Of a DNA stretch of 24,000 nucleotides, positions 5,149-24,000 are shown in pieces. Both the position numbers and the translations under genes were made by a program. The notes under the pieces are model-generated. The model searched no databases. It was not told the origin of the DNA and saw only the letters and a program-made list of their open reading frames with translations. The DNA lies in the NCBI RefSeq assembly GCF_900100655.1, contig NZ_FNCE01000001.1, positions 545,252 through 569,251 on the forward strand. Reading direction: 5' to 3'. Each line of letters begins with the position of its first letter. The stretch's first letter is position 1. Source of the stretch: Limimonas halophila. Its GTDB lineage: Bacteria; Pseudomonadota; Alphaproteobacteria; Kiloniellales; Rhodovibrionaceae.

Positions 5149-6329
5149 CTCTCGCGCGCCACCCCGCAGACGTCCGCGGCCTCGGCGAAGGCGTCCGCCG
5201 CGCGGTCGAGCAGGCCCGCGTCGTCGTGCGCCAGCGTGACCGACACACGCAGGCGCGCGGTGCCCGGCGGCACCGTGGGTGGGCGCATGGCGCCGCAGAT
5301 GACGCCGCGCTCACTGAGCGCGTCCGCCATCGCCCGCGCCTGCTCGTTGTCGCCGATGTGGACGGGCAGGATGGGCGACTGCGCCGCCGGAACCCGGAAG
5401 CCGCGCGCCGTCAGCCGCGCCGCCAGCCCGCGCGCCACCGCCAGCAGCCGCGCGCCCATCCGGCCGCCGTCTTCGCGAATGCGCCGCAGGGCCGTCTGCG
5501 CCGCCGCCGCGCTCGCGGGCGGCAGGCCCGTCGTGTAGATGAAGGCGCGCGCGTGGTTGATGAGGTAGGCGCGCAGCCGCGCGTCGCAGACCGCGAAGCC
5601 GCCGTAGCCGCCGACCGCCTTGCCGAAGCCGCCGGTGAGCACGTCGGCCCGCACGCCCGCCGCCGCGCACGCTCCCGCGCCGCCGGGGCCGAGCACGCCC
5701 AGCGCGTGCGCTTCGTCGACGATCAGCAGCGCCCCGTGCCGCCGCGCCACGGCGGCGATTTCGGCGAGCGGCGCCACGTCGCCGTCCATGCTGAACACGC
5801 TGTCGGTGACAACGAGCGCGGGCGCGCTCTCGCAGCCAGGGTTTTTGCCCAGCAGGGCGTCCAGGTGCTCGGGATCGTTGTGGCGGTAGCGCTGCCAGCG
5901 CGCCCCGGCCAGACGCACGCCGTCCAGAAGGCTGGCGTGGTTCAGGCGGTCGCAGAACACCGGCGTCCCCCGCCCGGCGAGCGCGCTGAGCACCCCCAGG
6001 TTGGCGAGGTAGCCGCTGCCGAAGACGAGCGCGCTCTCGCCGCCCATGACGGCGGCCAGCTCGGCCTCCAGGGCCTCGTGGACGGGCAGCGTGCCGGTGA
6101 CGAGGCGCGAGGCGGTCGCCCCGGCGCCCCAGGCCCGCGCGGCTTCCGCCGCCGCGTCACACACGACAGAGTCGCGGGCAAGGTCGAGGTAATCGTTGCC
6201 CGCGAAGTTGATGCCGGCGTCCCCCTCCGCTGCCGGCCGGGTCGTTAGGCTGCGCAACAGCCCCTGCTCGGCGCGCTCGCGAAGCGCCTGATCCACCCAG
6301 GTCCGGTTTGCGCTGTCGCTGGCGCTCAC
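5145..6329 (-). CDS. bioF: 8-amino-7-oxononanoate synthase
   Basis: 394 aa alpha-oxoamine synthase with NDYLDL, SGYLAN, DEAHALG and the GGFGKAVGGYGG lysine region. The start is GTG at 6327-6329, with GGAGG 4 nt upstream. Confidence 0.9.
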   Translation of the reverse strand: MSASDSANRTWVDQALRERAEQGLLRSLTTRPAAEGDAGINFAGNDYLDLARDSVVCDAAAEAARAWGAGATASRLVTGTLPVHEALEAELAAVMGGESALVFGSGYLANLGVLSALAGRGTPVFCDRLNHASLLDGVRLAGARWQRYRHNDPEHLDALLGKNPGCESAPALVVTDSVFSMDGDVAPLAEIAAVARRHGALLIVDEAHALGVLGPGGAGACAAAGVRADVLTGGFGKAVGGYGGFAVCDARLRAYLINHARAFIYTTGLPPASAAAAQTALRRIREDGGRMGARLLAVARGLAARLTARGFRVPAAQSPILPVHIGDNEQARAMADALSERGVICGAMRPPTVPPGTARLRVSVTLAHDDAGLLDRAADAFAEAADVCGVARER

Positions 6330-6342
6330 GCCACCTCCGGGC

Positions 6343-7386
6343 TCAGGCCGGCTGCGCGGCGGTCTCGTCCGCGCCCGCTTCCTCGCTCGTGCCCGCGTCC
6401 TCCGGCTCGATCTCCACCTCGAAGCCGAGGTCCTGGATCATCGCCGCCGTCTCCGAGGCGAGCTGGCCGTCGGTGGTGAGGTAGCCCTCCACGAACACCG
6501 AGTTGGCCGGGTAGAGCGCCAGCGGCTGCAGGCTGCGCAGGTTGACCTCGCGCCCGCCGGCCACGCGCACGTCCGCCGCCGGCAGCAGGAAGCGCGCCAG
6601 CGCCAGCACCTTGAGGCAGTAGCGCGGGGTCAGGCCGCTGTCGATGTTTTCGAAGGGCGTGCCCTCGATCGGGATCAGGAAGTTGAGCGGCACGGAGTGC
6701 GGCTCGATCTCGCGCAGGTGGAAGAGCATGTCGACGATGTCTTCGTTGCTCTCCCCTTGGCCGACGATGCCGCCCGAGCACAGCTCCAGCCCCGCGTCCT
6801 GGGCGTTCGCCAGGGTCGCCACGCGGTCGGCGTAGGTGTGCGTGGTGCAGATGTTGGGGTAGTGCCGCTCGGAGGTGTTGAGGTTGTGGTTGAGGCGGTC
6901 CAGCCCCGCCGCCTTCAGGCGCTCGGCCTGATCGCTCTTGAGCAGCCCGATGGACAGGCAGGTGTCGATGCCGACCTCGTCCTTGATGCGCGAGATGACG
7001 CGGCAGAGGTTGTCGATCTCGCGGTTGGTCGGCCCGCGCCCCGAGAGCGCCATGCAGTAGCGCCGCGCGTCCAGATCCTTGGCGTGCCGGGCCTCCTTGA
7101 GGAACTGCTCGTCGTTCCACATGCGGTATTTCTCGATCGCCGCCGTGGAGATCTTCGACTGCGCGCAGTAGTGGCAGTCCTCGGGGCACAGCCCGCTCTT
7201 GACGTTGCTCAGCCGGTGCACGTGCACCTTCGACCCGCGCCGCTGGCGGCGCACGCGGTAGGCGGCGTGCAACAGGGCCAGCAGGTCGTCGTCCGACGAT
7301 TCCAGGACGGACAGCGCCTGCTCGCGCGTCAGCGCGTCGCCGGCGATCGCCGTCTCGGCGAGGGTGTCGAAGCTGGGCTCGGGCAT
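6343..7386 (-). CDS. bioB: biotin synthase (radical SAM)
   Basis: The radical-SAM motif CPEDCHYC and BioB-like YCMALSGRGP and LNHNLNTS regions are present. The ORF track starts at GTG 7440. I prefer ATG 7384-7386 (MPEPSFDTL) because GAGAGGA lies about 8 nt upstream. Confidence 0.9.
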   Translation of the reverse strand: MPEPSFDTLAETAIAGDALTREQALSVLESSDDDLLALLHAAYRVRRQRRGSKVHVHRLSNVKSGLCPEDCHYCAQSKISTAAIEKYRMWNDEQFLKEARHAKDLDARRYCMALSGRGPTNREIDNLCRVISRIKDEVGIDTCLSIGLLKSDQAERLKAAGLDRLNHNLNTSERHYPNICTTHTYADRVATLANAQDAGLELCSGGIVGQGESNEDIVDMLFHLREIEPHSVPLNFLIPIEGTPFENIDSGLTPRYCLKVLALARFLLPAADVRVAGGREVNLRSLQPLALYPANSVFVEGYLTTDGQLASETAAMIQDLGFEVEIEPEDAGTSEEAGADETAAQPA

Positions 7387-7585
7387 CGGGTCGGTCCTCT
7401 CGGGCGCGCCCCGGTTCGGCGGGGCGGTCTCAATTCTCACGCACGTGGCTCGCGGGGATGGGCCGGGCCGGGAACCCGGCGCGAACCGGACGCTAATTCA
7501 AGCCCGCGCCCGCGTCCATGCTGGTTTTCCCACGCGTCACCGCAGTTTTCGCGCGGGTTTTTTCGCACGCGCGCCGCATCTCCGT

Positions 7586-7610
7586 GGAACTTTTGCGGCG
7601 CCGGCCTGTC
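7586..7610 (+). promoter_or_regulatory. ECF-type promoter candidate P1 (GGAAC-N17-GTC) upstream of the sigma factor gene
   Basis: The sequence is GGAACTTTTGCGGCGCCGGCCTGTC, ending 20 nt before the ATG at 7631. GGAAC at -35 and a GTC-type -10 match the general shape of ECF promoters. It is 23/25 identical to the second copy at 9089-9113. Confidence 0.5.
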
Positions 7611-7630
7611 GGACCACATAGACGCGCAGG

Positions 7631-8170
7631 ATGCGCGAGCCCGGGGGGCCGATGCCCGACGACACTTTCCGCTGGATGCTCACATGCGAGACGCCGCGCC
7701 TGCGCCGCTTCGCCACGGCGCTGACGGGTGACGCGGAGCGCGCGGACGATCTCGTGCAGGACACGCTGGAACGGGCGCTGCGCAAGCGCCGGCTGTGGGC
7801 CGGGACGGGCAGCATGCGGAGTTGGCTGTTCAAGCTGCTCTACCGCGTGCACCTCAACCAGCGGAGCCGCGCGCGCACCGAGGCATCGGCCCTCACGGCC
7901 GTGGAATACCGGGACACCGGCAGCATGCCGGCCAACCAGGACAGCCACGTCGAGGTGCTCAATGTCTCCGTGGCCCTGCGCGCGCTGCCGGCGGAGCAGC
8001 GCGACGCCGTTCTGCTGGTGGGCCTGGAGGGCATGGCCTACGACGAAGCCGCGGATGTGCTCGGCGTCCGCGTGGGAACCCTGAAGTCGCGCCTCTACAG
8101 GGGGCGCGAGGCCCTGTGGGCGATCCGCCGGGGCGACGTCGCGGCGACGCAGACGAAGGTGCGCTCATGA
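7631..8170 (+). CDS. ECF (group 4) sigma-70 family RNA polymerase sigma factor
   Basis: 179 aa. Region 2 reads ADDLVQDTLERAL...SWLFKLLYRVHLNQ. Region 4 reads LPAEQRDAVLLVGLEGMAYDEAADVLGVRVGTLKSRLYRGREAL. The start could also be the ATG at 7652. Confidence 0.85.
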   Translation: MREPGGPMPDDTFRWMLTCETPRLRRFATALTGDAERADDLVQDTLERALRKRRLWAGTGSMRSWLFKLLYRVHLNQRSRARTEASALTAVEYRDTGSMPANQDSHVEVLNVSVALRALPAEQRDAVLLVGLEGMAYDEAADVLGVRVGTLKSRLYRGREALWAIRRGDVAATQTKVRS

Positions 8171-9087
8171 CGACCGACGATTCGATCACCGATCTGGACC
8201 TGCTGGCCTACGCCGATGGCCGGTTGGACGCCGGACGCGCGGCGCGCGTCGAGGCCTACCTGGCCGAGCGGCCCGCGCTGCGCGACCAGATCGCCGATTT
8301 CGCCCGGCAGAACGCCGACCTGCACGCCTGCTTCGACCGCTACGCGGAAGCCGAGATTCCCGAGCGCATGCGGGCGGTGCTGAACGGTGCGCGCACGGAG
8401 CGTCCGCGCTGGCCGTCGGCGGCGATGCGCGCCGCGGCCGCGGTGGTTCTCATGCTCGCGGCCGGGGTGGGCGGCTGGTACGCGGGCGCCGGCGGCATGC
8501 TTCAGCCCGACGGGTCGCGCGATCTGGTCGCGCGCACCGCAAGCCTGCACGAGGGAGAGCCGGCGACCGAGCCGGTTTCGGCGGGCACGCCCGAAGGTAC
8601 GGCTGTGCTGGACTCGCTTCGCGAGCGTGCCGCGCTGCCGGCCCGGGCGCCGGAGTTGCGCCGGCACGGCTACCGCCTGATGAAGGTCGAGCGCGTCGAG
8701 ATGCAGGGCACGCGCGGCGTGGTGCTGCACTACGACGGTCGCGGGGAGCAGCGCGTGGACGTGGTGCTGCGCCCGCGCTGGGACGAAACGCCGGCGCGCG
8801 TGGAAACCACCACCCGCGGCGACGTGGGCCTCGCGCACTGGCGCGAGGGGCCGCTGGAGGTGGCGGTTGCCGGTCCCCGCGACGAGCGCGAGTTGCGCGA
8901 TCTGGCGCAAGCGCTGCGGCGATCCCTTCGCGCTTCGGGCAGTGGTGCGCCCTCGCAGCTGCGGCCGGACGAACCTTCACTGCAACGCAAACAGGAGGTT
9001 CAGGCCGCCAACGATCCGGACACCATGGTTCTTTCGCCCAGCCTGTCGCCGCAGCCGGCGGCGATCGGGGAAAATGTCCAACCGTGA
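8167..9087 (+). CDS. membrane-spanning anti-sigma factor (single TM, periplasmic C-terminal domain of unknown function)
   Basis: There is an ATGA overlap with the sigma gene stop at 8167-8170. The N-terminus LLAYADGRLDAGRAARVEAYLAERPALRDQIADFARQNADL is the typical anti-sigma domain helix pattern. One hydrophobic segment (AAAVVLMLAAGVGGWYAG) is present. The upstream 124 codons of the 430-aa ORF-track entry lie out of frame over the sigma gene and are ignored. Confidence 0.7.
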   Translation: MTTDDSITDLDLLAYADGRLDAGRAARVEAYLAERPALRDQIADFARQNADLHACFDRYAEAEIPERMRAVLNGARTERPRWPSAAMRAAAAVVLMLAAGVGGWYAGAGGMLQPDGSRDLVARTASLHEGEPATEPVSAGTPEGTAVLDSLRERAALPARAPELRRHGYRLMKVERVEMQGTRGVVLHYDGRGEQRVDVVLRPRWDETPARVETTTRGDVGLAHWREGPLEVAVAGPRDERELRDLAQALRRSLRASGSGAPSQLRPDEPSLQRKQEVQAANDPDTMVLSPSLSPQPAAIGENVQP

Positions 9088-11178: not shown

Positions 11179-11946
11179 TCACGATCGGCGCTTGCGCCGC
11201 GGTGCCCGGCCGCCCAGCCAGTTGGTCAGGCCGGTGATCGCCAGGGCCACCGCGGCCAGGCCGACGAGGTCCACGACGAGCACCCCGGCGGTGCCGAAGA
11301 GCCGGCCGCTGTGCAGGTCCAGCAGCAGGCGCGACCACGGAATGTGTGGGCGCCCCGCCAACTCAGCGAGGCGGGCGCGCACCTCGGCTGGCGGCTCGCC
11401 GGGCTGCGACCAGGTGTCGGGGCAGGACGTCTCGGACCAGGAGACGACGCCCGGCCCGGCGCGGTGGCAGCCGTTGGCGGTGCGCAGCACCACGCCGCCG
11501 TCCTTAGCCCGCGCCAGCGCCGTCGGTTCGCCGGGCAGCGCCGCCGCGCCCAGACTTTCCACCAGCCGGCCGTCCGGGGTCAGCAGCACCAGGGACGTCG
11601 AACCGGCGGCGACCAGCACGCGCGCGCTTGCCACCGCGCCGACGGGTGGCCCGGCGATGTCGGTCACGCGCTCGCCGTCCAGAACCAGCGTGCCGCCGGC
11701 CCAGCCGAGCCAGCGCCCGTCCACGCGGTAGGCGCGTGTCCGCGCCGCTGCGTCGTCGTGATACAGGCGCAGCAGCCAACCCCGGTGCAGCTCGGCGTCA
11801 TCCAGGCCCAGGGTTGGGCTGTGGTTGATCAAAACGCCCGTCACGGCCAGCAGCACCAGCACCGCGCCGGCCGCCAGCCCCACCCAGCGGTGCAGCTTCA
11901 GGTTCCAGGCGCGCAGGCGCTTGCGCCGCCGGTCAGCTCTCGCCAT
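11179..11946 (-). CDS. PepSY-associated transmembrane protein (PiuB/FoxB-like family)
   Basis: 255 aa. The N-terminus RKRLRAWNLKLHRWVGLAAGAVLVLLAVTGVLI is the PepSY_TM signature. A second TM segment lies at the C-terminus, after LLLDLHSGRLFG. The gene overlaps the upstream FMN-binding gene by 14 nt. Confidence 0.7.
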   Translation of the reverse strand: MARADRRRKRLRAWNLKLHRWVGLAAGAVLVLLAVTGVLINHSPTLGLDDAELHRGWLLRLYHDDAAARTRAYRVDGRWLGWAGGTLVLDGERVTDIAGPPVGAVASARVLVAAGSTSLVLLTPDGRLVESLGAAALPGEPTALARAKDGGVVLRTANGCHRAGPGVVSWSETSCPDTWSQPGEPPAEVRARLAELAGRPHIPWSRLLLDLHSGRLFGTAGVLVVDLVGLAAVALAITGLTNWLGGRAPRRKRRS

Positions 11947-12484
11947 CGCCGCCGTCCGCGCCGGTCACGGCGCCGTGTAGGACGAGCGCCATCTCGGCGA
12001 TGTTGGTGAGCGCGCGCACGCTCAGCGTGGCGCCGGAGATGCCGTCGATGTAGCGGTCCAGCCCGTCGCGCGCGGCGTTGAGCGTGGCGCCGTCGAACTG
12101 CTGGGTGAAGAAGTCCTCGCGCACCTCCCAGCCGCGGCTTTCCCGGTAAATCAGGACCTTGATGCGCTGCACCGCGCCGTCCTCGACGACGACGCCGGTG
12201 GTGATGGGTTCGTGCTTGCCGATGCGTTCGAGGATCCAGGCCGTGCGGTCGCCCCGCTGCCAGTAGCGCATGCGCAGGCTGTTGGGCTCGTCGCCCAGCA
12301 CGCGCTTGAGCCCGGCTTTCACCTCGCCGGTGATCCAGAGCACCTCGTCGCTCGGCGGCTCGCCGTCGAAGGCGCCGGCGATGAAGGCGTCCGGCTCCTG
12401 GTACACGTCCGCCGCCCACGCGGGCAGGGCGAGTGCGAGCAGCGCAAGCCCGATCAGAACCGGGCCGGTCGGGACGGAACGCAT
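11933..12484 (-). CDS. secreted FMN-binding domain protein (ApbE substrate-type)
   Basis: ATG 12482-12484 has GGAGG 6 nt upstream. The signal peptide is MRSVPTGPVLIGLALLALALPAWA/AD. The FMN_bind motif IDGISGATLSVRA contains the [ST]GA[TS] flavinylation threonine. Confidence 0.75.
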   Translation of the reverse strand: MRSVPTGPVLIGLALLALALPAWAADVYQEPDAFIAGAFDGEPPSDEVLWITGEVKAGLKRVLGDEPNSLRMRYWQRGDRTAWILERIGKHEPITTGVVVEDGAVQRIKVLIYRESRGWEVREDFFTQQFDGATLNAARDGLDRYIDGISGATLSVRALTNIAEMALVLHGAVTGADGGDGES

Positions 12485-12544
12485 GACGGCCCTCCTTCGG
12501 GGGTTCGGGGCCGGACGGCGCGGCCGCCCGGCCCGCATGCGTGG

Positions 12545-13885
12545 TCAGAACTGCAAGCCGAGGGCCAGGTTGAAGCTGCCCTCGTCGTCGCGGCTGTCTT
12601 CGTAGGTCTGGTGGGCGTAGTTGGCCTTCAGGACCATGTTGGGATCGAGCCAGTAGTTGGCGCCGACGTTGAACTCGGTGAAACGGCTGTCGATGGCGTC
12701 GCGGCCCGCCTGATCGTCGATCATGGAGACGCGGCCGAAGACGCCCAGCTCGCCGGGGCCGACGTTCTGGAAGGTGTAGCTGGGCTGCAGGTACCAGCCC
12801 CACTGCTCGTCGCGCCCGAAGCCTTCCAGCGACACCGTGGACGCCGTGCCGTCCTCGTCGAAGTCGATCTGCTGCTGCACGTCGTCGTGGAAGTCCCAGC
12901 GCGCGTACATGGCGCGGAAGCCCCACGGCCCGCGTTCGATGTCGGCGTGGGTCTCGAACAGCGTCGCCTCGACGTCCTCGCGGTCCTGGGTCACGTCCTC
13001 CTGGTACTGTCCGGTCGCGGACAGCGTCACGCCCGGCATCCCGGTCCACTGCAGGCGCAGCGTCCCGGCGCCGGATTCGGCCGTGGCGTTGGAAGCGGAC
13101 TGCGTGGACGCGGCGGCGTTGAAGGCGTTGCCGGCTTCGCCGCCCTCGGCGCCTTCCGCGCCGGTCAGCGAGGCGTCGAGCCCGGTGTGGATCATGGCGT
13201 CGTAGCTGAAGCCGCCGCCGAGCTGACCGCGCACGCTGGCCGAGGCCTCCCACCAGGTGGTGGGCAGGATGCGGCGCTCCACGATGGGCCGCTGCGTGCC
13301 GTAGAAGGTGTTGGGCTCGTGGGTTTCGTTGATAACGCCCACGGGGATCAGCTCGACACCGCCGCGCACCTCGTGGTTCTGGGCGATGTCGTAGGCGGCC
13401 CAGAGCTGCTCCAGCTCAACCTCGCCCTCGCTGTCCTCGCCGCCGAAGACGAGCGCGTTCTCCACTTCCAGTTCGGAGAAGAAGCGCAGGTCCTCGTTGA
13501 ACTGGTGGCCGACCTCGAGGACAAAGCGCTTGGCGGTGGCTTCGGCGTCGCCGTTGCCGACCTCGCCGCCTTCGCCGCCTTCCAGGGCGTTGTCCCCGAT
13601 GTAGTGGACCTCGCCGTAGCCGCCGATCTGGGTGTTCTCGAACCAGCCGGACGGCCCCTGGCGGGCCTCCTTGGCGACGTTCTGAACCATGTCGCCGGTG
13701 GCTTCGACCTTGGCCTCGGTCTCCTTCTGCTCGCCTTCCAGCTGGTCGATCCGCTCCTGCTGCTGCTGGATGATCTCCCACATCCGCTCGCGGGAGGGCA
13801 GGTCGTCGGTCTGCGCCCGGGCCTGGCCCGCCGTCATGGCGGCGGCGACCAGGGCCGAGGTCATCAGCAAGCTGCTGCGTCGCAT
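12545..13885 (-). CDS. outer-membrane beta-barrel porin with N-terminal coiled coil (OprO/P- or DcaP-like)
   Basis: These are the last 446 codons of the 830-aa ORF-track entry. The signal peptide is MRRSSLLMTSALVAAAMTAGQARA/QT. A coiled-coil stretch (IIQQQQERIDQLEGEQKETEAKVE) is followed by alternating beta-strand patterns. The protein has the OMP-type terminus LALGLQF. Confidence 0.75.
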   Translation of the reverse strand: MRRSSLLMTSALVAAAMTAGQARAQTDDLPSRERMWEIIQQQQERIDQLEGEQKETEAKVEATGDMVQNVAKEARQGPSGWFENTQIGGYGEVHYIGDNALEGGEGGEVGNGDAEATAKRFVLEVGHQFNEDLRFFSELEVENALVFGGEDSEGEVELEQLWAAYDIAQNHEVRGGVELIPVGVINETHEPNTFYGTQRPIVERRILPTTWWEASASVRGQLGGGFSYDAMIHTGLDASLTGAEGAEGGEAGNAFNAAASTQSASNATAESGAGTLRLQWTGMPGVTLSATGQYQEDVTQDREDVEATLFETHADIERGPWGFRAMYARWDFHDDVQQQIDFDEDGTASTVSLEGFGRDEQWGWYLQPSYTFQNVGPGELGVFGRVSMIDDQAGRDAIDSRFTEFNVGANYWLDPNMVLKANYAHQTYEDSRDDEGSFNLALGLQF

Positions 13886-13945
13886 GGGATACCCCCTTGG
13901 TTGTAGCGCCCGCCGACCGTGATGGCCGGCGCGCGCCTCCGTAAT

Positions 13946-13964
13946 GCGAATGCGACGCATTTGC
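13946..13964. promoter_or_regulatory. Fur-box-like palindrome 1, proximal to the porin operon
   Basis: The sequence is GCGAATGCGACGCATTTGC, with arms matching 8/9 around a central A. It matches the classical GATAATGATAATCATTATC consensus at 11/19 positions and is 16/19 identical to box 2. It lies 61 nt from the porin ATG. On the minus strand it fills the 17-nt spacer between TTGCAA and TACGGA. Confidence 0.4.
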
Positions 13965-14074
13965 AACACGCCTTCTGTCCGGTTACAACCCGGCTGTGGC
14001 TTGCGGCGGACGCGCCGCGCACCGGGGCATGTCCCGCTTTGACGCGGGGCGCCGGAGCGTGCCGCGACCATCTT

Positions 14075-14093
14075 GAGAATGCAAAGCATTTGC
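14075..14093. promoter_or_regulatory. Fur-box-like palindrome 2, proximal to pepM
   Basis: The sequence is GAGAATGCAAAGCATTTGC, with a core of TGCAAA-GCA-TTTGCA. It matches the classical Fur consensus at 13/19 positions. It lies 60 nt from the pepM ATG. It overlaps a possible TTGAGA-N17-TAGCGT promoter. Confidence 0.4.
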
Positions 14094-14152
14094 AATAGCG
14101 TCCCGAACGCCGGGTGGCCGGATGGCCGGCCGGCGCGGGGAAGGGGGAGCCC

Positions 14153-15097
14153 ATGACGCTGCACATCGACCAGGAAAGCGCGCCCGCGACGAGTCGCCTG
14201 CGCGCGTTGCTGCACGCCGGCGCGCCCATTCCGGTGATCGACGCCTACGACGCGCTCTCGGCGCGCATCGTCGAATCGGCGGGCTACCGGGCGATCTGGG
14301 CCTCGGGCCTGGGTATCTCGGCGTCCTTTGGGCTGCGCGACAACAACGAGGCGTCGTGGACGCAGATCCTCGACTCGCTGGAGCTGATGGCGGAGGCCAC
14401 GAGCGTTCCCATCCTGGTCGACGGCGACAGCGGCTTCGGCAACTTCAACAACGTCCGCCGCTTCGTGAAGAAGATCGGCCAGCGCGGCCTGGCGGGCGTG
14501 TGTATCGAGGACAAGGCTTTCCCGAAGGCCAACTCCTTCGCCGAGCGCACGCACGAGCTGTGCCCGGCTGGCGAGTTCTGCGGCAAGATCCGCGCGGCCA
14601 AGGACAGCCAGCCTGACGACGACTTCGTCGTGGTCGCGCGCACCGAGGCGCTGATCGCCGGGCACGGGCTGGACGCGGCGCTGGCACGGGCGGAGGCGTA
14701 CCGCCACGCCGGGGCGGACGCCATTCTCGTCCATTCCAAGGCCACGACCGCGGAGGAAGTGGCCGCCTTCGCCGCCCGCTGGGGCGGCCGCGCGCCGCTC
14801 GTCGTCGTGCCCACGACCTACGCGGATACGCCGGCTGACACCTTCCAGCGCATGGGCGTGTCGCTGGTCATCTGGGCCAACTTCACGCTGCGCGCAGCCA
14901 TCCAGGGGATCGAGAACGCCTGCGCCGCCCAGCAGGCGAACGGCGGCGCGCCCGAGCCCGGCGACGCGCGCTACGCGCCGCTGAAACGCGTCTTCGAGCT
15001 GACCGACGAGCAGGAGCTGCGCGCGGCCGAGCAGCACTACATGCCCGCCGCCGAGGACGGTCCAGCGCCCGCGCGCCTGCGTGCAGCCGGGTCCTGA
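14153..15097 (+). CDS. pepM: phosphoenolpyruvate mutase
   Basis: The protein has an isocitrate lyase/PEP mutase fold and carries the PepM-diagnostic EDK-x5-NS motif (IEDKAFPKANSF). ATG 14153 is preceded by AAGGGGGAG. The ORF track starts at GTG 14114. Confidence 0.88.
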   Translation: MTLHIDQESAPATSRLRALLHAGAPIPVIDAYDALSARIVESAGYRAIWASGLGISASFGLRDNNEASWTQILDSLELMAEATSVPILVDGDSGFGNFNNVRRFVKKIGQRGLAGVCIEDKAFPKANSFAERTHELCPAGEFCGKIRAAKDSQPDDDFVVVARTEALIAGHGLDAALARAEAYRHAGADAILVHSKATTAEEVAAFAARWGGRAPLVVVPTTYADTPADTFQRMGVSLVIWANFTLRAAIQGIENACAAQQANGGAPEPGDARYAPLKRVFELTDEQELRAAEQHYMPAAEDGPAPARLRAAGS

Positions 15098-15108: not shown

Positions 15109-16290
15109 ATGCACGAACCCGGTGCGCTGCTCGACACGCTCGCCGCCCACGGCGTGGATTTCGCCGCCGGAGTGCCGTGCTCGCTCCAGGGCGGGGTGTT
15201 CGCCGCGCTGGAGCAGGGGCGCGCGGATATCCCCTATGTGGCTGCCAGCGGCGAAGGGGAGGCGGTCGGCATTGCCGCCGGCGCCTGGCTTGCCGGGCGG
15301 CGGCCGGCGGTGCTCCTGCAGAACTCGGGCCTGGGCAACACCGTGAACCCCCTGGCGGCGCTCACGCAGCCCTTCGGGATTCCAGTGCTGCTGTTGGTGT
15401 CCTGGCGCGGGCAGCCGGGCACGGGCGACGCGCCGCAGCACGCCGTCATGGGCGCGGCGACCCACGCGGTGCTGAGCGATCTGGGCATCGCGCACGAAGA
15501 GCTGGCGGAAACCCCGGACGGCGTGGCGGCGCAGCTCGCCCGCCTGACGGCGTGGATGGACACCGAACGGCGCAGCGCCGCCCTGATCGTGCCGCCCGGC
15601 CGGATCGCCGAGCACGACGCGGGCACGGCATCACGGGTGAGCGCGGTCGCGGACGCGGACCCCGCACGCCGGGAGCCGGCCCCGCACCGGGATTTTCGGG
15701 CCGGCGGAGCGCCGCCCGCTCGTGCCGAGACCCTCAGGGCCGTCGCCGAAACCTTGCCGCCGGAGGCCGCCGTCGTCGCCACCACGGGCAAGATCGCACG
15801 CGAATGCTACGCGCTCGCCGACCGGCCGCGGAATTTCTACGTCACCGGCGGCATGGGCAGCGCCGCCGCCATTGGGCTGGGCATCGCCCGCGCGCAGCCG
15901 GCGCGGCCGGTCGTGGTGCTGGACGGCGACGGCGCGGCGCTCATGCGCCTGGGAACACTGGCGACCGTGGGGGCACAGGCCCCGGCGCGGCTGACCCACG
16001 TGCTGCTGGACAACGGCGCGCACGATTCCACGGGCGGGCAGCGCACCGCCAACCCCGGCGTCGACTTCGCCGCCGTCGCGCGCGCCTGCGGCTACGCCGC
16101 CACGGCCGCCTGCGACACCCGCGACGGCCTTGCCGAGGCGCTGCGCGCACCGGACGGCCCGGCGCTGGTCCATGCGCACGTGGCAACCGGGGCGCTGCCG
16201 AAGCTGGGCCGCCCACAGGAAACGCTGCCGGAGCTGGCCGCGCGCATGCGCGCGCACCTGACCGCCACGGAGGACTCCCCCGATGCCTGA
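15109..16290 (+). CDS. ppd: phosphonopyruvate decarboxylase (ThDP-dependent)
   Basis: 393 aa. The N-terminal PYR domain reads GVDFAAGVPCSLQ...LQNSGLGN. The C-terminal PP domain has the GDGAALM...NGAHDSTGGQ ThDP motif. The gene lies 11 nt downstream of pepM. Confidence 0.88.
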   Translation: MHEPGALLDTLAAHGVDFAAGVPCSLQGGVFAALEQGRADIPYVAASGEGEAVGIAAGAWLAGRRPAVLLQNSGLGNTVNPLAALTQPFGIPVLLLVSWRGQPGTGDAPQHAVMGAATHAVLSDLGIAHEELAETPDGVAAQLARLTAWMDTERRSAALIVPPGRIAEHDAGTASRVSAVADADPARREPAPHRDFRAGGAPPARAETLRAVAETLPPEAAVVATTGKIARECYALADRPRNFYVTGGMGSAAAIGLGIARAQPARPVVVLDGDGAALMRLGTLATVGAQAPARLTHVLLDNGAHDSTGGQRTANPGVDFAAVARACGYAATAACDTRDGLAEALRAPDGPALVHAHVATGALPKLGRPQETLPELAARMRAHLTATEDSPDA

Positions 16291-17740
16291 CGCCGCATCC
16301 GCCCGCGAACCCGCGCCCGACGCCTCGGCCGCGGCCGAACCGGGCGGCTGGCCCGCCGTGAACGTGCCGCGCTCGCACGCGCCCGGCGTGGTCTGGCCGG
16401 CCGTGCCGGACTGGCGCCAGGCGGTGGTCCTGGGGCTGCTGCACCAGTTCAACCAGGCGCAGTGGTGGTCGCCGGACGACCTGTGGCACTGGCAGCGCGC
16501 CCAGGCCGCGCGGCTGATCCTGCACGCCCAGAAGCACGTGCCCTTCTACCGCAAGCGCCTGAAGCGGGTGCCCATCTTGCGCGACGGCACCGTGCCGGAA
16601 GGGGCGTGGCGCCGCATCCCGTGGCTGCGGCGCGAGGACATGCAGAATCAGTACGAGGCCCTGTGCAGCCAGGCGATCCCCGAAGGCCACGGGCGCGTGT
16701 CCGCCGTGCATTCCTCGGGCTCGACCGGCCGGCCCATCAAGGCGCTGCGCACGCAGCTCTCGGTGCTGTTCTGGGAAGCCTTCACGCACCGCGACCACGA
16801 CTGGCACGGCCGCGACCGCAACCAGACGGTCGCCGTTATGCGCCACGCGGGCGAGGGGGACGACCCCTATCCCGAGGGCACGCGCGCCCGCAACTGGGGC
16901 AAGGAGCCCACGGCCGTCTACGACACGGGGCCGTGCGTGGCGCTCAACCTCAACACGCCGTTGGATCAGCAGGTGGAGTGGCTGCAGCGCCAGCAGCCCG
17001 CCTATCTGCTCACCTTCCCCTCGAACGTCGAGCGCCTGGCCCGGCACTGCCTGGAGACCGGCGCGCGCATCCCGACGCTGCGGCAGGTGCAGCTCATCGC
17101 CGAGGTGGTGCGCCCCGAGCTGCGCGAGCTGGTGCGGGCGGCCTGGGGCGCCGAGGTGGTGGACACCTACAGCTCGCGCGAGGCCGGGTATCTGGCGCTC
17201 CAGTGCCCCGAGCACGAGCACCTGCACGTGCAGAGCGAGGGCGTCATCGTCGAGGTGCTGAAGGACGACGGCACGCCCTGCACCCCCGGCGAGATCGGGC
17301 GCGTCGTGGTGACGCCGCTGCACAACTACGCCATGCCGCTGATCCGCTACGACATCGGCGACTACGCGGAAGTGGGCGAGCAATGCCCGTGCGGCCGGGG
17401 GCTCCCGGTGCTGCGGCGCGTTCTCGGGCGCGCGCAGACCACCTTCGTGCTGCCCGACGGCAGCCGGCGGTGGACGCTGCTGTCCAGCGGCGAGATCCGC
17501 GAGCTGCTGGCGATCGGCCCCATCCGGGGCTATCAGTTCGTGCAGACAACCACGGACCATGTCGAGGCGCGGCTGGTCGCCGACCGCGCGCTCACGACCG
17601 ACGAGGAAGAGCAGGTGCGCGGCTGGCTGCGCCACAAGCTGCAGCATCCCTTCGCCGTCACCATCGCCTATCGCGACGAGCTGCCGCTGACGGCCGGCGG
17701 CAAGTTCTTCGACTTCATCTCGGAGGTTGCCGCGCCATGA
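16283..17740 (+). CDS. PaaK / coenzyme-F390-synthetase / CapK-like adenylate-forming ligase (ANL superfamily)
   Basis: 485 aa. It carries the AMP-binding motif SSGSTGRPIK, the YSSREAG and PLIRYDIGD regions, and a C-terminal GGKF. GGAGGA lies 8 nt upstream of the ATG. The gene overlaps the ppd stop by 8 nt. Confidence 0.75.
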   Translation: MPDAASAREPAPDASAAAEPGGWPAVNVPRSHAPGVVWPAVPDWRQAVVLGLLHQFNQAQWWSPDDLWHWQRAQAARLILHAQKHVPFYRKRLKRVPILRDGTVPEGAWRRIPWLRREDMQNQYEALCSQAIPEGHGRVSAVHSSGSTGRPIKALRTQLSVLFWEAFTHRDHDWHGRDRNQTVAVMRHAGEGDDPYPEGTRARNWGKEPTAVYDTGPCVALNLNTPLDQQVEWLQRQQPAYLLTFPSNVERLARHCLETGARIPTLRQVQLIAEVVRPELRELVRAAWGAEVVDTYSSREAGYLALQCPEHEHLHVQSEGVIVEVLKDDGTPCTPGEIGRVVVTPLHNYAMPLIRYDIGDYAEVGEQCPCGRGLPVLRRVLGRAQTTFVLPDGSRRWTLLSSGEIRELLAIGPIRGYQFVQTTTDHVEARLVADRALTTDEEEQVRGWLRHKLQHPFAVTIAYRDELPLTAGGKFFDFISEVAAP

Positions 17741-18729
17741 CCACACGGCGGACGCTTCTCGGCACGCTCGGCGGCCTCGCCGGCGCGGCCGTGTTGCCCT
17801 GGCCGCTGGCGGCGGGTGAGCGCGCACGCCGCGAACCGCTGACGTTCATGGGGGTGTCGGGCCGCGTGACCCTGGCGGACCCCGGTGACGGCCGCGTCGA
17901 GGCCGCGCTGGCGCAGGTGCGCCGCGAGCTGCGGCGCCTGGAAGCGGCCGTGAGCCTCTACGATCCAAACAGCGAACTCTCGCGCCTCAACCGCGACGGC
18001 CGGCTGGCCGGGGCCTCGCCGGCGCTGCGCGCGGTGCTGGACCGGGCGTTGGCGGTCGCGCGGGCCACGGACGGCGCCTTCGATCCCACGGTGCAGCCGC
18101 TGTGGGAACTGCACGCGCGTTTCTTCCGCGATGCGAACGCCCCCGCGCCCCCGCCGCAGCTGCTGCGCGAGCGCGCGGCCGGGCTGGTCGATCATCGGCG
18201 CGTGCGCGTGGACAGCGATGGCGTGGCGTTCGACCGGCCCGGCATGGCGGTGACGCTCAACGGCCTGGCGCAGGGCCGCGCCACGGACCTCGTCACCGAA
18301 ACGCTGCGCCGTCATGGCCTGCACCGGCACCTTGTGGATCTGGGCGAATTCAGCGCCCGCGCCGGAAACGACGGCGAGCCGTGGCGTGTGGGCGTGGCCG
18401 CGCCGGCGGGCGGGCGGCTGACGCTGGTGCGCACTGTCCCGCTGACGTCGGGTGCGCTCGCCACCTCGGCAGGCTACGGCACACCCTTCGACGCCGAAGG
18501 CCGGCACCACCACCTCTTCGATCCCGCGACCGGCGGCAGCACCACGCGCCACGCCAGCGTCAGCGTCACCGCGCCCGACGCTGCCACCGCGGACGCGCTG
18601 TCGACCGCCTTTTCGGCCATGCCCACGGGCCGCATCGCCGCCGTGGTCGCGGACCGGCCGGGGCTGGGCGCGCTCGTCGTGGATCACGCCGGGGCGGTAG
18701 AAACCTTCGGCCGCTTTGCGGCGGCGTGA
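17737..18729 (+). CDS. apbE: FAD:protein FMN transferase (ApbE family), Tat-exported
   Basis: There is an ATGA overlap with the ligase stop. The twin-arginine signal is MTTRRTLLGTLGGLAGAAV. ApbE motifs are FDPTVQPLWELH, LNGLAQGRATD and TSAGYGTPFDAEGRHHHLFDPATG. The first 425 codons of the 755-aa ORF-track entry lie out of frame over the ligase gene and are ignored. Confidence 0.85.
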   Translation: MTTRRTLLGTLGGLAGAAVLPWPLAAGERARREPLTFMGVSGRVTLADPGDGRVEAALAQVRRELRRLEAAVSLYDPNSELSRLNRDGRLAGASPALRAVLDRALAVARATDGAFDPTVQPLWELHARFFRDANAPAPPPQLLRERAAGLVDHRRVRVDSDGVAFDRPGMAVTLNGLAQGRATDLVTETLRRHGLHRHLVDLGEFSARAGNDGEPWRVGVAAPAGGRLTLVRTVPLTSGALATSAGYGTPFDAEGRHHHLFDPATGGSTTRHASVSVTAPDAATADALSTAFSAMPTGRIAAVVADRPGLGALVVDHAGAVETFGRFAAA

Positions 18730-18739
18730 CGGGCTCAGC

Positions 18740-19840
18740 ATGGCCGACGACGACGCGCCCATTCTGCTGACGCCGGGGCCGCTTACGACCTCCGCCGGCG
18801 TCAAGGCGGCGATGGACCGCGACCACGGCTCGCGCGATCCGGGATTCCTGGCGCTGACGCAGCGCGTGCGCGAACGCCTGCTGCGTGTCGTCGGCGGCGA
18901 TCCGGCAACGCACGCAGCCGTGCCGCTCGCGGGCAGCGGCACCACGGCCGTGGAGGCCATGGTGCTATCCCTCGTGCCGCCCGACGGGCGGCTGCTGATG
19001 CTGGTCAACGGCGCCTACGGCGAGCGCATGGCGCAGATCGCCCGCGCGGCCGGTCGCGACGTGACGACGCTGACCTGGCCGGAAGACAGCCCGGTCGATC
19101 CCGGGGCGGTGGACGCGGCGCTGGCCGCCGATCCGGCCATCGGGCACGTGGCCGTGGTCCACGTCGAAACCACCACGGGGCTGGAAAACCCCCTGCATGC
19201 GATCGCGCGCACGGTCCAGGCGCGGGGGCGGGCGCTGCTCGTGGATGCGGTCGCGAGCGTCGCGGCCACACCGTTGGATTTGCAGGAAACGCCCGTCCAC
19301 GCCCTGGCGGGCACGGCGAACAAGGGGCTGCAGGGCGTGCCGGGGCTGGCCTTCTGTGTCGCCCGGCGCGATGCGCTGGACGCGGCGGACGGTCGCGCGC
19401 CCAGCCTCACGCTCGATCTGGCCGCGCAGTGGCGGCGGTTCCAGCGCGATGGGCAATGGCGCTTCACGCCGCCGACGCACGCGGTCGCGGCCCTGGATCG
19501 CGCCCTGGACGAGCTGGACGGCGAGGGCGGCGTGCCGGCCCGCATCGCCCGCTACCGCGACAATTGCGCCACGCTGCGCGCCGGCCTGCGCGCGCGCGGG
19601 TTCGTGCCGCTGCTGCCCGACGCGCACCAGGCGCCCACGATCGTTACGGTGCACCGGCCGCCCGAGCTGGCGTTCGATGCGCTCTACGACGGTCTCGCCG
19701 CGCGCGGATTCCTCATCTATCCGCGCAAGCTGACCGCGGCCGAAACTTTCCGCGTCGGCTGCATCGGCGCCATCGGCCGCCGCGAGATCGAGGGATTCCT
19801 CATTGCGCTCGACGACGTGACGGCGAGCCTGCGCCCATAG
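18740..19840 (+). CDS. phnW: 2-aminoethylphosphonate:pyruvate aminotransferase (class V)
   Basis: 366 aa counted from ATG 18740. The N-terminus is ILLTPGPLTTS, and TANKGLQGVPGLAF contains the PLP lysine. Its position directly after pepM and ppd argues for a biosynthetic role. Confidence 0.85.
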   Translation: MADDDAPILLTPGPLTTSAGVKAAMDRDHGSRDPGFLALTQRVRERLLRVVGGDPATHAAVPLAGSGTTAVEAMVLSLVPPDGRLLMLVNGAYGERMAQIARAAGRDVTTLTWPEDSPVDPGAVDAALAADPAIGHVAVVHVETTTGLENPLHAIARTVQARGRALLVDAVASVAATPLDLQETPVHALAGTANKGLQGVPGLAFCVARRDALDAADGRAPSLTLDLAAQWRRFQRDGQWRFTPPTHAVAALDRALDELDGEGGVPARIARYRDNCATLRAGLRARGFVPLLPDAHQAPTIVTVHRPPELAFDALYDGLAARGFLIYPRKLTAAETFRVGCIGAIGRREIEGFLIALDDVTASLRP

Positions 19841-23457: not shown

Positions 23458-24000
23458 TTAGTGTAACCCCGATCGCGTCGGCCGGGGAGGAAAATCTCGG
23501 CCGGCATTCCGGCCGCCACCGACGTGACCATCGACGTTGCCACCGTCGGTATCGTCTCCGCTGTGCTCGCCGAGGAGCTGGAAGCTCGCCATCGACGCCC
23601 ACGCTTGGATCAGCGTGCCGTCGACCGAGAAATGCTCCCGGCTCAACAACGGCTTGCCCCGCTCGTGCTCCAGGATCGCGGTGAGAAACCGTTGCTCCAC
23701 CTCCGTGGCGACCAGCCGCTCACGGTTCTTGGCGTAGACGCTGGAATGCCAGACCGCATCCTCGATCCCCAGGCCCACGAACCAGCGGAGCAGAAGATCA
23801 AAGTCGAGGCGCTCCATCATCTGGCGCTCGGACACAAAGTCGCTGGCCGAAGGCCAGCTAACAGATGCCGTGGTGCAGCTGGAGCACCAGCGCACGCATC
23901 AGCCACTCCGGGGGAATGCTCGGCCGTCTGCGATCGCTATAGATCGCTTCGAACGTCGGCGACAGTTCCTTGAGCGCGTCATCCACCACGCCCCGGATCA
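23458..24000 (-). pseudogene. N-terminal part of a second, decayed IS5/IS1182-family transposase (continues beyond the window)
   Basis: The minus-strand translation reads IRGVVDDALKELSPTFEAIYSDRRRPSIPPEWLMRALVLQLHHGIC*. After a frameshift it continues SERQMMERLDFDLLLRWFVGLGIEDAVWHSSVYAKNRERL...EHFSVDGTLIQAWASM...GGGRNAGRDF. This is the InsH-N/DUF772-type N-terminal domain. Homology stops near 23490. Confidence 0.7.

Follow-up and report, generated by a model that had tools for sequence, protein, structure and literature searches.

Paired putative Fur operators between divergent porin/flavoprotein and 2-aminoethylphosphonate operons in Limimonas halophila

Organization of the divergent locus

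Limimonas halophila, an alphaproteobacterium of the family Rhodovibrionaceae, carries two divergently transcribed operons – one for a porin, a secreted flavoprotein and a PepSY_TM membrane protein, the other for synthesis of 2-aminoethylphosphonate (AEP) – separated by a 267-bp spacer containing two near-identical palindromes. The window analyzed here is a stretch of 24,000 nucleotides (contig NZ_FNCE01000001.1, positions 545,252 to 569,251), to which coordinates refer unless a genome or contig is named. A first-pass annotation of this DNA described the palindromes as Fur-box-like and proposed that one dimeric metalloregulator of the Fur/Mur/Zur class controls both operons by promoter occlusion; we find that the motif, its genomic distribution and its conservation point to Fur itself. 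The features of the locus are as follows.

11179–11946, minus strand: PepSY_TM membrane protein (Pfam PepSY_TM), putative transmembrane electron carrier or ferric reductase partner
11933–12538, minus strand: secreted FMN_bind-domain protein (Pfam FMN_bind; database form 183 aa), likely flavinylation substrate
12545–13885, minus strand: porin with signal peptide and N-terminal coiled coil (Pfam Porin_4), first gene leftward
13938–13966, minus strand: candidate porin-operon promoter, TTGCAA (13966–13961), 17-nt spacer filled by box 1, TACGGA (13943–13938)
13945–13965, no strand: Fur box 1, TGCGAATGCGACGCATTTGCA, putative operator proximal to the porin operon
14073–14101, plus strand: candidate pepM promoter, TTGAGA (14073–14078), 17-nt spacer filled by box 2, TAGCGT (14096–14101)
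14074–14094, no strand: Fur box 2, TGAGAATGCAAAGCATTTGCA, putative operator proximal to the pepM operon
14153–15097, plus strand: phosphoenolpyruvate (PEP) mutase, pepM, first gene rightward (Pfam PEP_mutase 7e-63; TIGR02320 312.6 bits, under the 319.55 cut-off)
15109–16290, plus strand: phosphonopyruvate decarboxylase, ppd (NCBIfam TIGR03297 377.5 bits, above cut-off)
16283–17740, plus strand: PaaK/F390-synthetase-like adenylate-forming ligase (partial, sub-cut-off NCBIfam matches to DVU_1553-family, FlxY and PaaK)
17737–18729, plus strand: ApbE flavin transferase (Pfam ApbE 5.5e-58)
18716–19840, plus strand: 2-aminoethylphosphonate:pyruvate aminotransferase, phnW/aepZ type (NF010006 422.6 bits, TIGR03301 418.1 bits; both above cut-off)

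Architecture of the boxes

Both of the 19-mers previously noted are present, GCGAATGCGACGCATTTGC at 13946–13964 and GAGAATGCAAAGCATTTGC at 14075–14093, and a recount returns the same identities, with 16/19 positions shared between the two, and 11/19 and 13/19, respectively, shared with the classical Fur consensus GATAATGATAATCATTATC. The first lies 61 nt from the porin start codon (13946 to the ATG at 13885, minus strand) and the second 60 nt from that of pepM (14093 to the ATG at 14153), and the symmetric placement also holds, the box centres being 64 and 65 nt away from the centre of the spacer. The palindromes are real, but comparison with relatives shows the conserved unit to be 21 bp rather than 19 bp (13945–13965 and 14074–14094), and although the boxes are mirror-placed they are not mirror-oriented, both having the same orientation on the plus strand. 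This matters little, because each box is a near-palindrome.

The 21-bp consensus of the boxes is TGCRAATGC-N3-GCATTYGCA, and each is built as two overlapping 7-1-7 inverted repeats (TGCRAAT-n-ATTYGCA) with a 6-bp offset. The 19-nt pattern common to both boxes has four strand-matches in the window (0.14 expected), and the exact core AATGC-N3-GCATT is found at two places in the 3.04-Mb genome, namely in these boxes only. The layout is that of the classical Fur box of Escherichia coli and Bacillus subtilis, with the same 6-6-1-6 arrangement of hexamers and the same 6-bp offset of 7-1-7 units, but the hexamer is GCRAAT here and GATAAT there, and for this reason the alignment to the E. coli consensus is in register but of modest identity; taken alone, 11/19 and 13/19 are unconvincing at 70% GC. 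The classical box itself was reportedly interpreted by Baichoo and Helmann in 2002 as either three hexamers or two overlapping 7-1-7 repeats.

The alphaproteobacterial Fur-alpha box (Rodionov et al.; Caulobacter, PMC2724300) has the same half-site, TGCGAA(y/t), within a 7-1-7 or 9-1-9 inverted repeat, is frequently placed between divergent genes, and governs a regulon of the same kinds of genes as those described below (TonB receptors, fbpABC, piuB/piuC, exbBD and bfr). The sites described here differ from it in being mostly 21-bp triple-hexamer units – two 7-1-7 repeats at a 6-bp offset – in often having A at position 4 (TGCAAAT), in having T rather than C at position 7, and, for box 1, in having a GC-rich centre (GCGACGC).

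Genome-wide distribution of the motif

The motif recurs at iron-uptake genes elsewhere in the genome. With up to two mismatches, the 21-mer pattern has nine sites, compared with none for the reversed control, and the pattern combined with two matrix scans yields about 15 sites. The top sites other than those in the window precede classical iron genes: an FbpA-like binding protein and FbpB-like permease; a siderophore-type ATP-binding cassette system with an FhuC-like ATPase followed by an open reading frame (ORF) with an FhuF domain; and a PiuC-like hydroxylase and bacterioferritin. Others lie between a divergent pair consisting of a periplasmic binding protein and a TonB-dependent receptor, and at a second TonB-dependent receptor that is divergent from exbB-exbD-exbD. 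Box 2 and the box in front of the fbpA-like gene (G000:C10:479456, G000 being this genome) are identical at 18/21 positions. A further, strong copy precedes a DUF6746 gene (site G000:C7:28520–28546; gene L067:6493–6969), and a site within a chemoreceptor gene (G000:C10:652055) was judged to be a false positive. About 2.3 kb past the end of the window, in low-GC DNA with no clear gene, there is a weak match to the Fur matrix (14.7 bits; G000:C10:571514–571550, L068:2515–2551), and near it a copy of the AATGC-N3-GCATT core with one mismatch.

These assignments do not depend on a pattern drawn from the boxes. An independent matrix was constructed from published Fur sites of Caulobacter crescentus (27 sites; PMC2724300, Table 3), none of which is from this lineage; eleven Fur sites in that organism have been validated by gel shift (PMC2724300). 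Scanned across the genome, it recovers the same iron loci together with both boxes, and resolves each box into two Caulobacter-type sites with a 6-bp offset. The 19-mers starting at 13943 and 13949 (box 1) rank 14 and 16, and those starting at 14072 and 14078 (box 2) rank 23 and 9, among approximately 3.04 million positions, with scores of 14.7–18.3 bits.

The motif is also widespread in the order, in which 81 of 127 genomes carry the 21-mer pattern, with controls near zero. The flanks of one site per genome, inspected in 30 of these genomes, include TonB-receptor Plug domains (eight), FbpA-type binding proteins (five), STN domains (four), imelysin (one) and ExbB (one). When the proteins of the window were compared by tblastn with the 30 motif-bearing loci of other genomes there were no matches, those sites being at other iron genes. 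The gene content at the sites is that described for the alphaproteobacterial Fur regulon outside of the Rhizobiales and Rhodobacterales, whose members include piuB and piuC (Rodionov et al., PMC1698941). The outcome is a Fur box, TGCRAATGC-N3-GCATTYGCA, and a compact predicted Fur regulon for an alphaproteobacterial family that has been little studied, a regulon that can be transferred to those genomes of the order with the pattern (81 of 127).

Two other views of the motif were tried and abandoned. A dedicated local regulator of the phosphonate genes was suspected at first, the 13-nt core occurring only twice in the genome, and was dropped in view of the nine sites with the 21-bp pattern at iron genes; no regulator gene is present among the annotated ORFs beside the two operons. 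A division into two motif classes for different Fur paralogues – a 9-3-9 form with a GCGWCGC centre, and a 7-1-7 form with an additional hexamer – was rejected because sites across the family grade into one another as TGCRAW hexamer arrays, and is also countered by the 18/21 identity of box 2 to the fbpA box.

Conservation of the boxes and their surroundings

Among relatives that have the locus, the nearest (G004, of a different genus) is labelled as an uncultured Rhodovibrionaceae metagenome-assembled genome (MAG); its PepM is 66% identical, its porin 54% and its PaaK-like ligase 67%. It has the same eight genes, with phnW relocated to the head of the rightward unit, and has four boxes – a tandem pair in front of the porin and single boxes in front of phnW and of pepM – which are the only matrix matches in 19 kb of the locus. 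When the spacers of the two genomes are compared, the boxes alone show significant similarity (20–22 nt, 95% identical), and box 1 is 95% identical to three of the four. The box before phnW (L031:8910–8948) forms part of a larger inverted repeat, in which arms of 17 nt (GGACGGTATTGCAACTG and its complement) flank a centre of 5 nt; all other sites are much shorter.

Gene order in a metagenome contig (L131) is as in L. halophila, and the FMN_bind protein of the contig is 85% identical. Its box 1 is identical and its box 2 differs by two changes, whereas the intervening 100 nt have diverged. The divergent arrangement of a pepM operon and a porin module was seen only in L. halophila, the MAG and this contig. 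Among the 127 genomes of the order the FMN_bind protein is found in only L. halophila and the MAG, the other pepM loci of the order have no box, and of 35 loci fetched through homologues of the PaaK-like ligase, only that of the MAG has the pepM/porin context. Many MAGs of Burkholderiales and other proteobacteria have ligase homologues that are 42–47% identical, arranged as two or three paralogues in tandem and not accompanied by pepM (L092, L093, L095, L097, L108, L109 and others); these may represent an unrelated type of biosynthetic cluster.

The porin/FMN_bind/PepSY_TM module

The leftward operon has relatives well beyond this lineage. The FMN_bind protein has 2951 homologues with E≤1e-10, mostly metagenomic, and six distant loci with FMN_bind proteins 57–65% identical to it encode both a porin and the FMN_bind protein, five of them with PepSY_TM and one with ApbE instead. 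At all six, the best or second-best Caulobacter-matrix match in the 8–18 kb locus is in the spacer directly before the porin; at one locus the top match lies instead before a DUF6746 gene that precedes the porin. This placement agrees with the description of PepSY-like flavinylation gene clusters as proposed iron reductases, reported to be Fur-repressed in Shewanella and Caulobacter (Meheust et al. 2021, PMC8238504). The leftward operon belongs to this group, with the same three genes in the same order and a Fur site in front, although it differs in that apbE lies outside the module, within the divergent, putatively Fur-controlled operon with pepM, ppd, phnW and the PaaK-like ligase. The present findings lend independent support to the view of the porin/flavoprotein/PepSY module as an iron-starvation system.

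Two distant loci have additional features. In one, the DUF6746 gene (L135:3961–4455) is directly before the porin-FMN_bind-PepSY-ApbE genes and has a strong Fur-type site in front of it; together with the L. halophila site noted above, DUF6746 looks like an uncharacterized member of the Fur regulon that is linked to the porin module. In another, from a distant metagenome (L134), a gene of 480 aa with a faint AMP-binding match (5793–7235, minus strand) is divergent from the porin (7524–8933, plus strand), FMN_bind and PepSY_TM genes, with one Fur-type site between the gene and the porin and no pepM nearby. If this gene is a homologue of the PaaK-like ligase, then the function of the ligase may lie with the porin module and not with phosphonate synthesis.

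Identity of the regulator

The genome encodes three PF01475 genes, for a Fur, an Irr-like and a Zur-like protein. The fur gene (G000:C15:452280–452633; L032:1465–1884, minus strand) matches PF01475 with 124.9 bits, and the closest solved relative of its product is Magnetospirillum gryphiswaldense Fur (4RAY, E=1.8e-36); the second closest is 5FD5, which we take to be Rhizobium leguminosarum Mur. One of the PF01475 proteins contains an HHH motif of the kind known from Irr. Fur is, as far as sequence comparison can tell, by far the best candidate to regulate the boxes. Assignment to the Fur/Mur/Zur class thus holds and can be narrowed to Fur, on the strength of the motif at iron genes, the match to the Caulobacter matrix, a distinct Zur box, and the lack of both an Nramp gene and a signal for the Irr-binding iron control element (ICE). 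Likewise, one Fur would serve both operons, as the proposal of a single dimeric regulator had it, but two dimers probably bind each box, each having two overlapping sites with a 6-bp offset.

One alternative, which we regard as quite improbable, is that the Fur orthologue acts as Mur, with both operons answering to manganese instead of iron, as in the Rhizobiales and Rhodobacterales. The presumed Mur structure is, as noted, the second-closest solved relative of Fur, and an Irr gene is present, as it is in lineages in which Fur has turned Mur. The Mur MRS motif and the Fur-alpha box also resemble each other (Rodionov et al., PMC1698941). The genes bearing the motif are nevertheless iron genes – TonB receptors, exbBD, fbpAB, FhuF, bacterioferritin and piuC – and no gene for the manganese transporter Nramp was found in the genome, whose sole ZnuA/SitA-family binding protein is paired with Zur and with another box. 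Irr is not apparent as the main iron regulator, the ICE motif being nearly absent: a scan gave a single near-match genome-wide, the reversed control likewise gave one, and the window has none.

There is a similarly small chance that the motif is read by an iron regulator from outside of the Fur family (RirA, IscR-like or other) or by Irr, the likeness to a Fur box being convergent. A faint similarity does exist among the Fur-alpha, RirA, Iron-Rhodo and IscR boxes, which share the consensus TG-N11-CA (Rodionov et al., PMC1698941), but the published consensus sequences for the Irr ICE (TTTRGAAYNRTTCYAAA) and RirA (TGA-N9-TCA) both differ from the box motif (PMC1698941), whereas its 7-1-7 core matches the validated Caulobacter Fur sites position by position. 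Furthermore, distant bacteria that differ in GC content have the same type of site in front of their porin modules.

Control of the two operons by Zur, as part of a zinc-starvation response, is more improbable still. The Zur-like gene, which resembles alphaproteobacterial Zur, is only about 17 kb away (G000:C10:542291–542647), and the AATG...CATT core bears a vague likeness to Zur boxes. That gene is divergent from the only ZnuA-family gene of the genome, about 2–3 kb before the start of the window (G000:C10:542291–543835; L126:1330–1380), and the spacer between them contains TTGACA followed by a different, AT-rich palindrome, TATAATATAACGTAT, which is likely to be the Zur box overlapping a promoter. 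No TGCRAATGC-type site is present in this zur-znuA spacer, and the motif's other copies all lie beside genes for iron rather than zinc. Equally improbable is a reading of the repeats as shared promoter elements or a duplicated fragment of spacer with no repressor, which the −35-like TTGCAA at the box end and the shared orientation might suggest, since the boxes are near-palindromic, belong to a set of about 15 genomic sites at iron genes, and are conserved across genera and gene rearrangement where the surrounding spacer has diverged.

Candidate promoters

The −35 and −10 hexamers previously paired around each box are present as described, but they are weak matches that fall below a strict sigma-70 threshold. 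For pepM the geometry of the candidate promoter is conserved in the L131 contig (TTGAGA-17-TAGCCT), with a similar arrangement before phnW of the MAG, where TTGCAA-17-TACCGT encloses the phnW box. The porin-operon promoter is a weaker candidate, its −10 hexamer being poor: TACGGA lacks the final T, and the corresponding hexamer in L131 is TACGCC. Promoter occlusion, as proposed in the first-pass annotation, is plausible for both, with reasonable support on the plus strand and weak support on the minus strand.

Proposed regulation

Motif identity, the regulon, conservation and the presence of a fur gene were each computed, and together they suggest that both boxes are operators of the organism's Fur, of the alphaproteobacterial Fur-alpha box type, and that they co-control the two operons; we put the probability of this at about 0.85. 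The following scheme adds what we infer: that Fur binds, to which metal it responds, in which direction it regulates, and how precisely the boxes overlap the promoters. When iron is sufficient, metal-loaded Fur – probably as two dimers per box – would bind the one box beside each start codon and block two back-to-back promoters with one operator each; when iron is scarce, both operons would be derepressed together. The leftward operon would then provide a putative reductive iron-uptake module that is widely conserved and Fur-controlled, and the rightward operon would supply the flavin transferase (ApbE) for the leftward flavoprotein and make AEP or a derivative of it.

The mechanism is most likely classical Fur repression of back-to-back promoters, by analogy to the fepB-entC region of E. 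coli, where such repression is described (PMC5020551). In both cases a short divergent spacer has one Fur box for each direction, and a biosynthesis operon is opposite to an uptake component. They differ in that the E. coli product is enterobactin and its boxes and promoters have been mapped experimentally, whereas the biosynthetic arm here is a phosphonate pathway and the arrangement is known from sequence alone.

Several points weigh against this interpretation. In the regulator, alignment of Fur with 4RAY shows QHYH where the Magnetospirillum protein has HHDH and, further on, D and R where it has E and H. Of the four presumed ligands of one metal site, three differ from Magnetospirillum Fur, while the H/E/H/H site looks intact; a canonical metal response is therefore not guaranteed. 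In the boxes, the GCGACGC centre of box 1 makes it a poorer fit to the 7-1-7 pattern than other sites. The high scores of both boxes under the second matrix, assembled from 46 sites in nine other genomes of the family (33.8 bits each, ranks 3–4 in the genome), are partly circular, its sites having been collected with a pattern derived from the boxes, a problem from which the Caulobacter matrix is free. As for occlusion, a strict sigma-70 consensus scan of 13700–14300 finds no promoter, and the model thus depends on weak hexamers. Finally, the pepM box of the MAG follows a good TTGACA-N17/18 element and may be downstream of a better promoter, which would be a different geometry.

The AEP operon and iron

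The motif and the regulation of the porin module are of kinds already known; what appears to be new is the second putative Fur box, on the pepM-ppd-ligase-apbE-phnW operon. In each of the three known copies of the locus, the rightward AEP pathway carries a Fur box of its own, and no paper tying Fur or iron to pepM or to AEP synthesis was found in the literature searched. That a complete AEP pathway is predicted to be iron-regulated is the less expected, non-routine aspect of the locus, and it makes iron limitation a concrete condition under which to seek the phosphonate product and its function.

A speculative explanation, which we consider rather unlikely, is that the two boxes mark out an iron-starvation gene pair in which a molecule derived from AEP serves to acquire iron. 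It could be a phosphonate metallophore or Fe(III) ligand that enters through the co-regulated porin, its iron then being released in the periplasm by the ApbE-flavinylated FMN_bind/PepSY_TM reductase. PepM, Ppd and PhnW would make the molecule, and the PaaK-like ligase may condense AEP with an acid. If true, both a role in iron uptake for a phosphonate natural product and the placement of a pepM cluster in a Fur regulon would be firsts.

Flanking DNA

The DNA changes in character right after phnW: from 19841 to the end of the window at 24000, GC content falls from about 74% to 42–69%, few ORFs have family matches, and a DUF772 transposase fragment is present at 23458–23895. Combined with how rarely the locus occurs in the order, these features suggest that it borders or belongs to acquired DNA.

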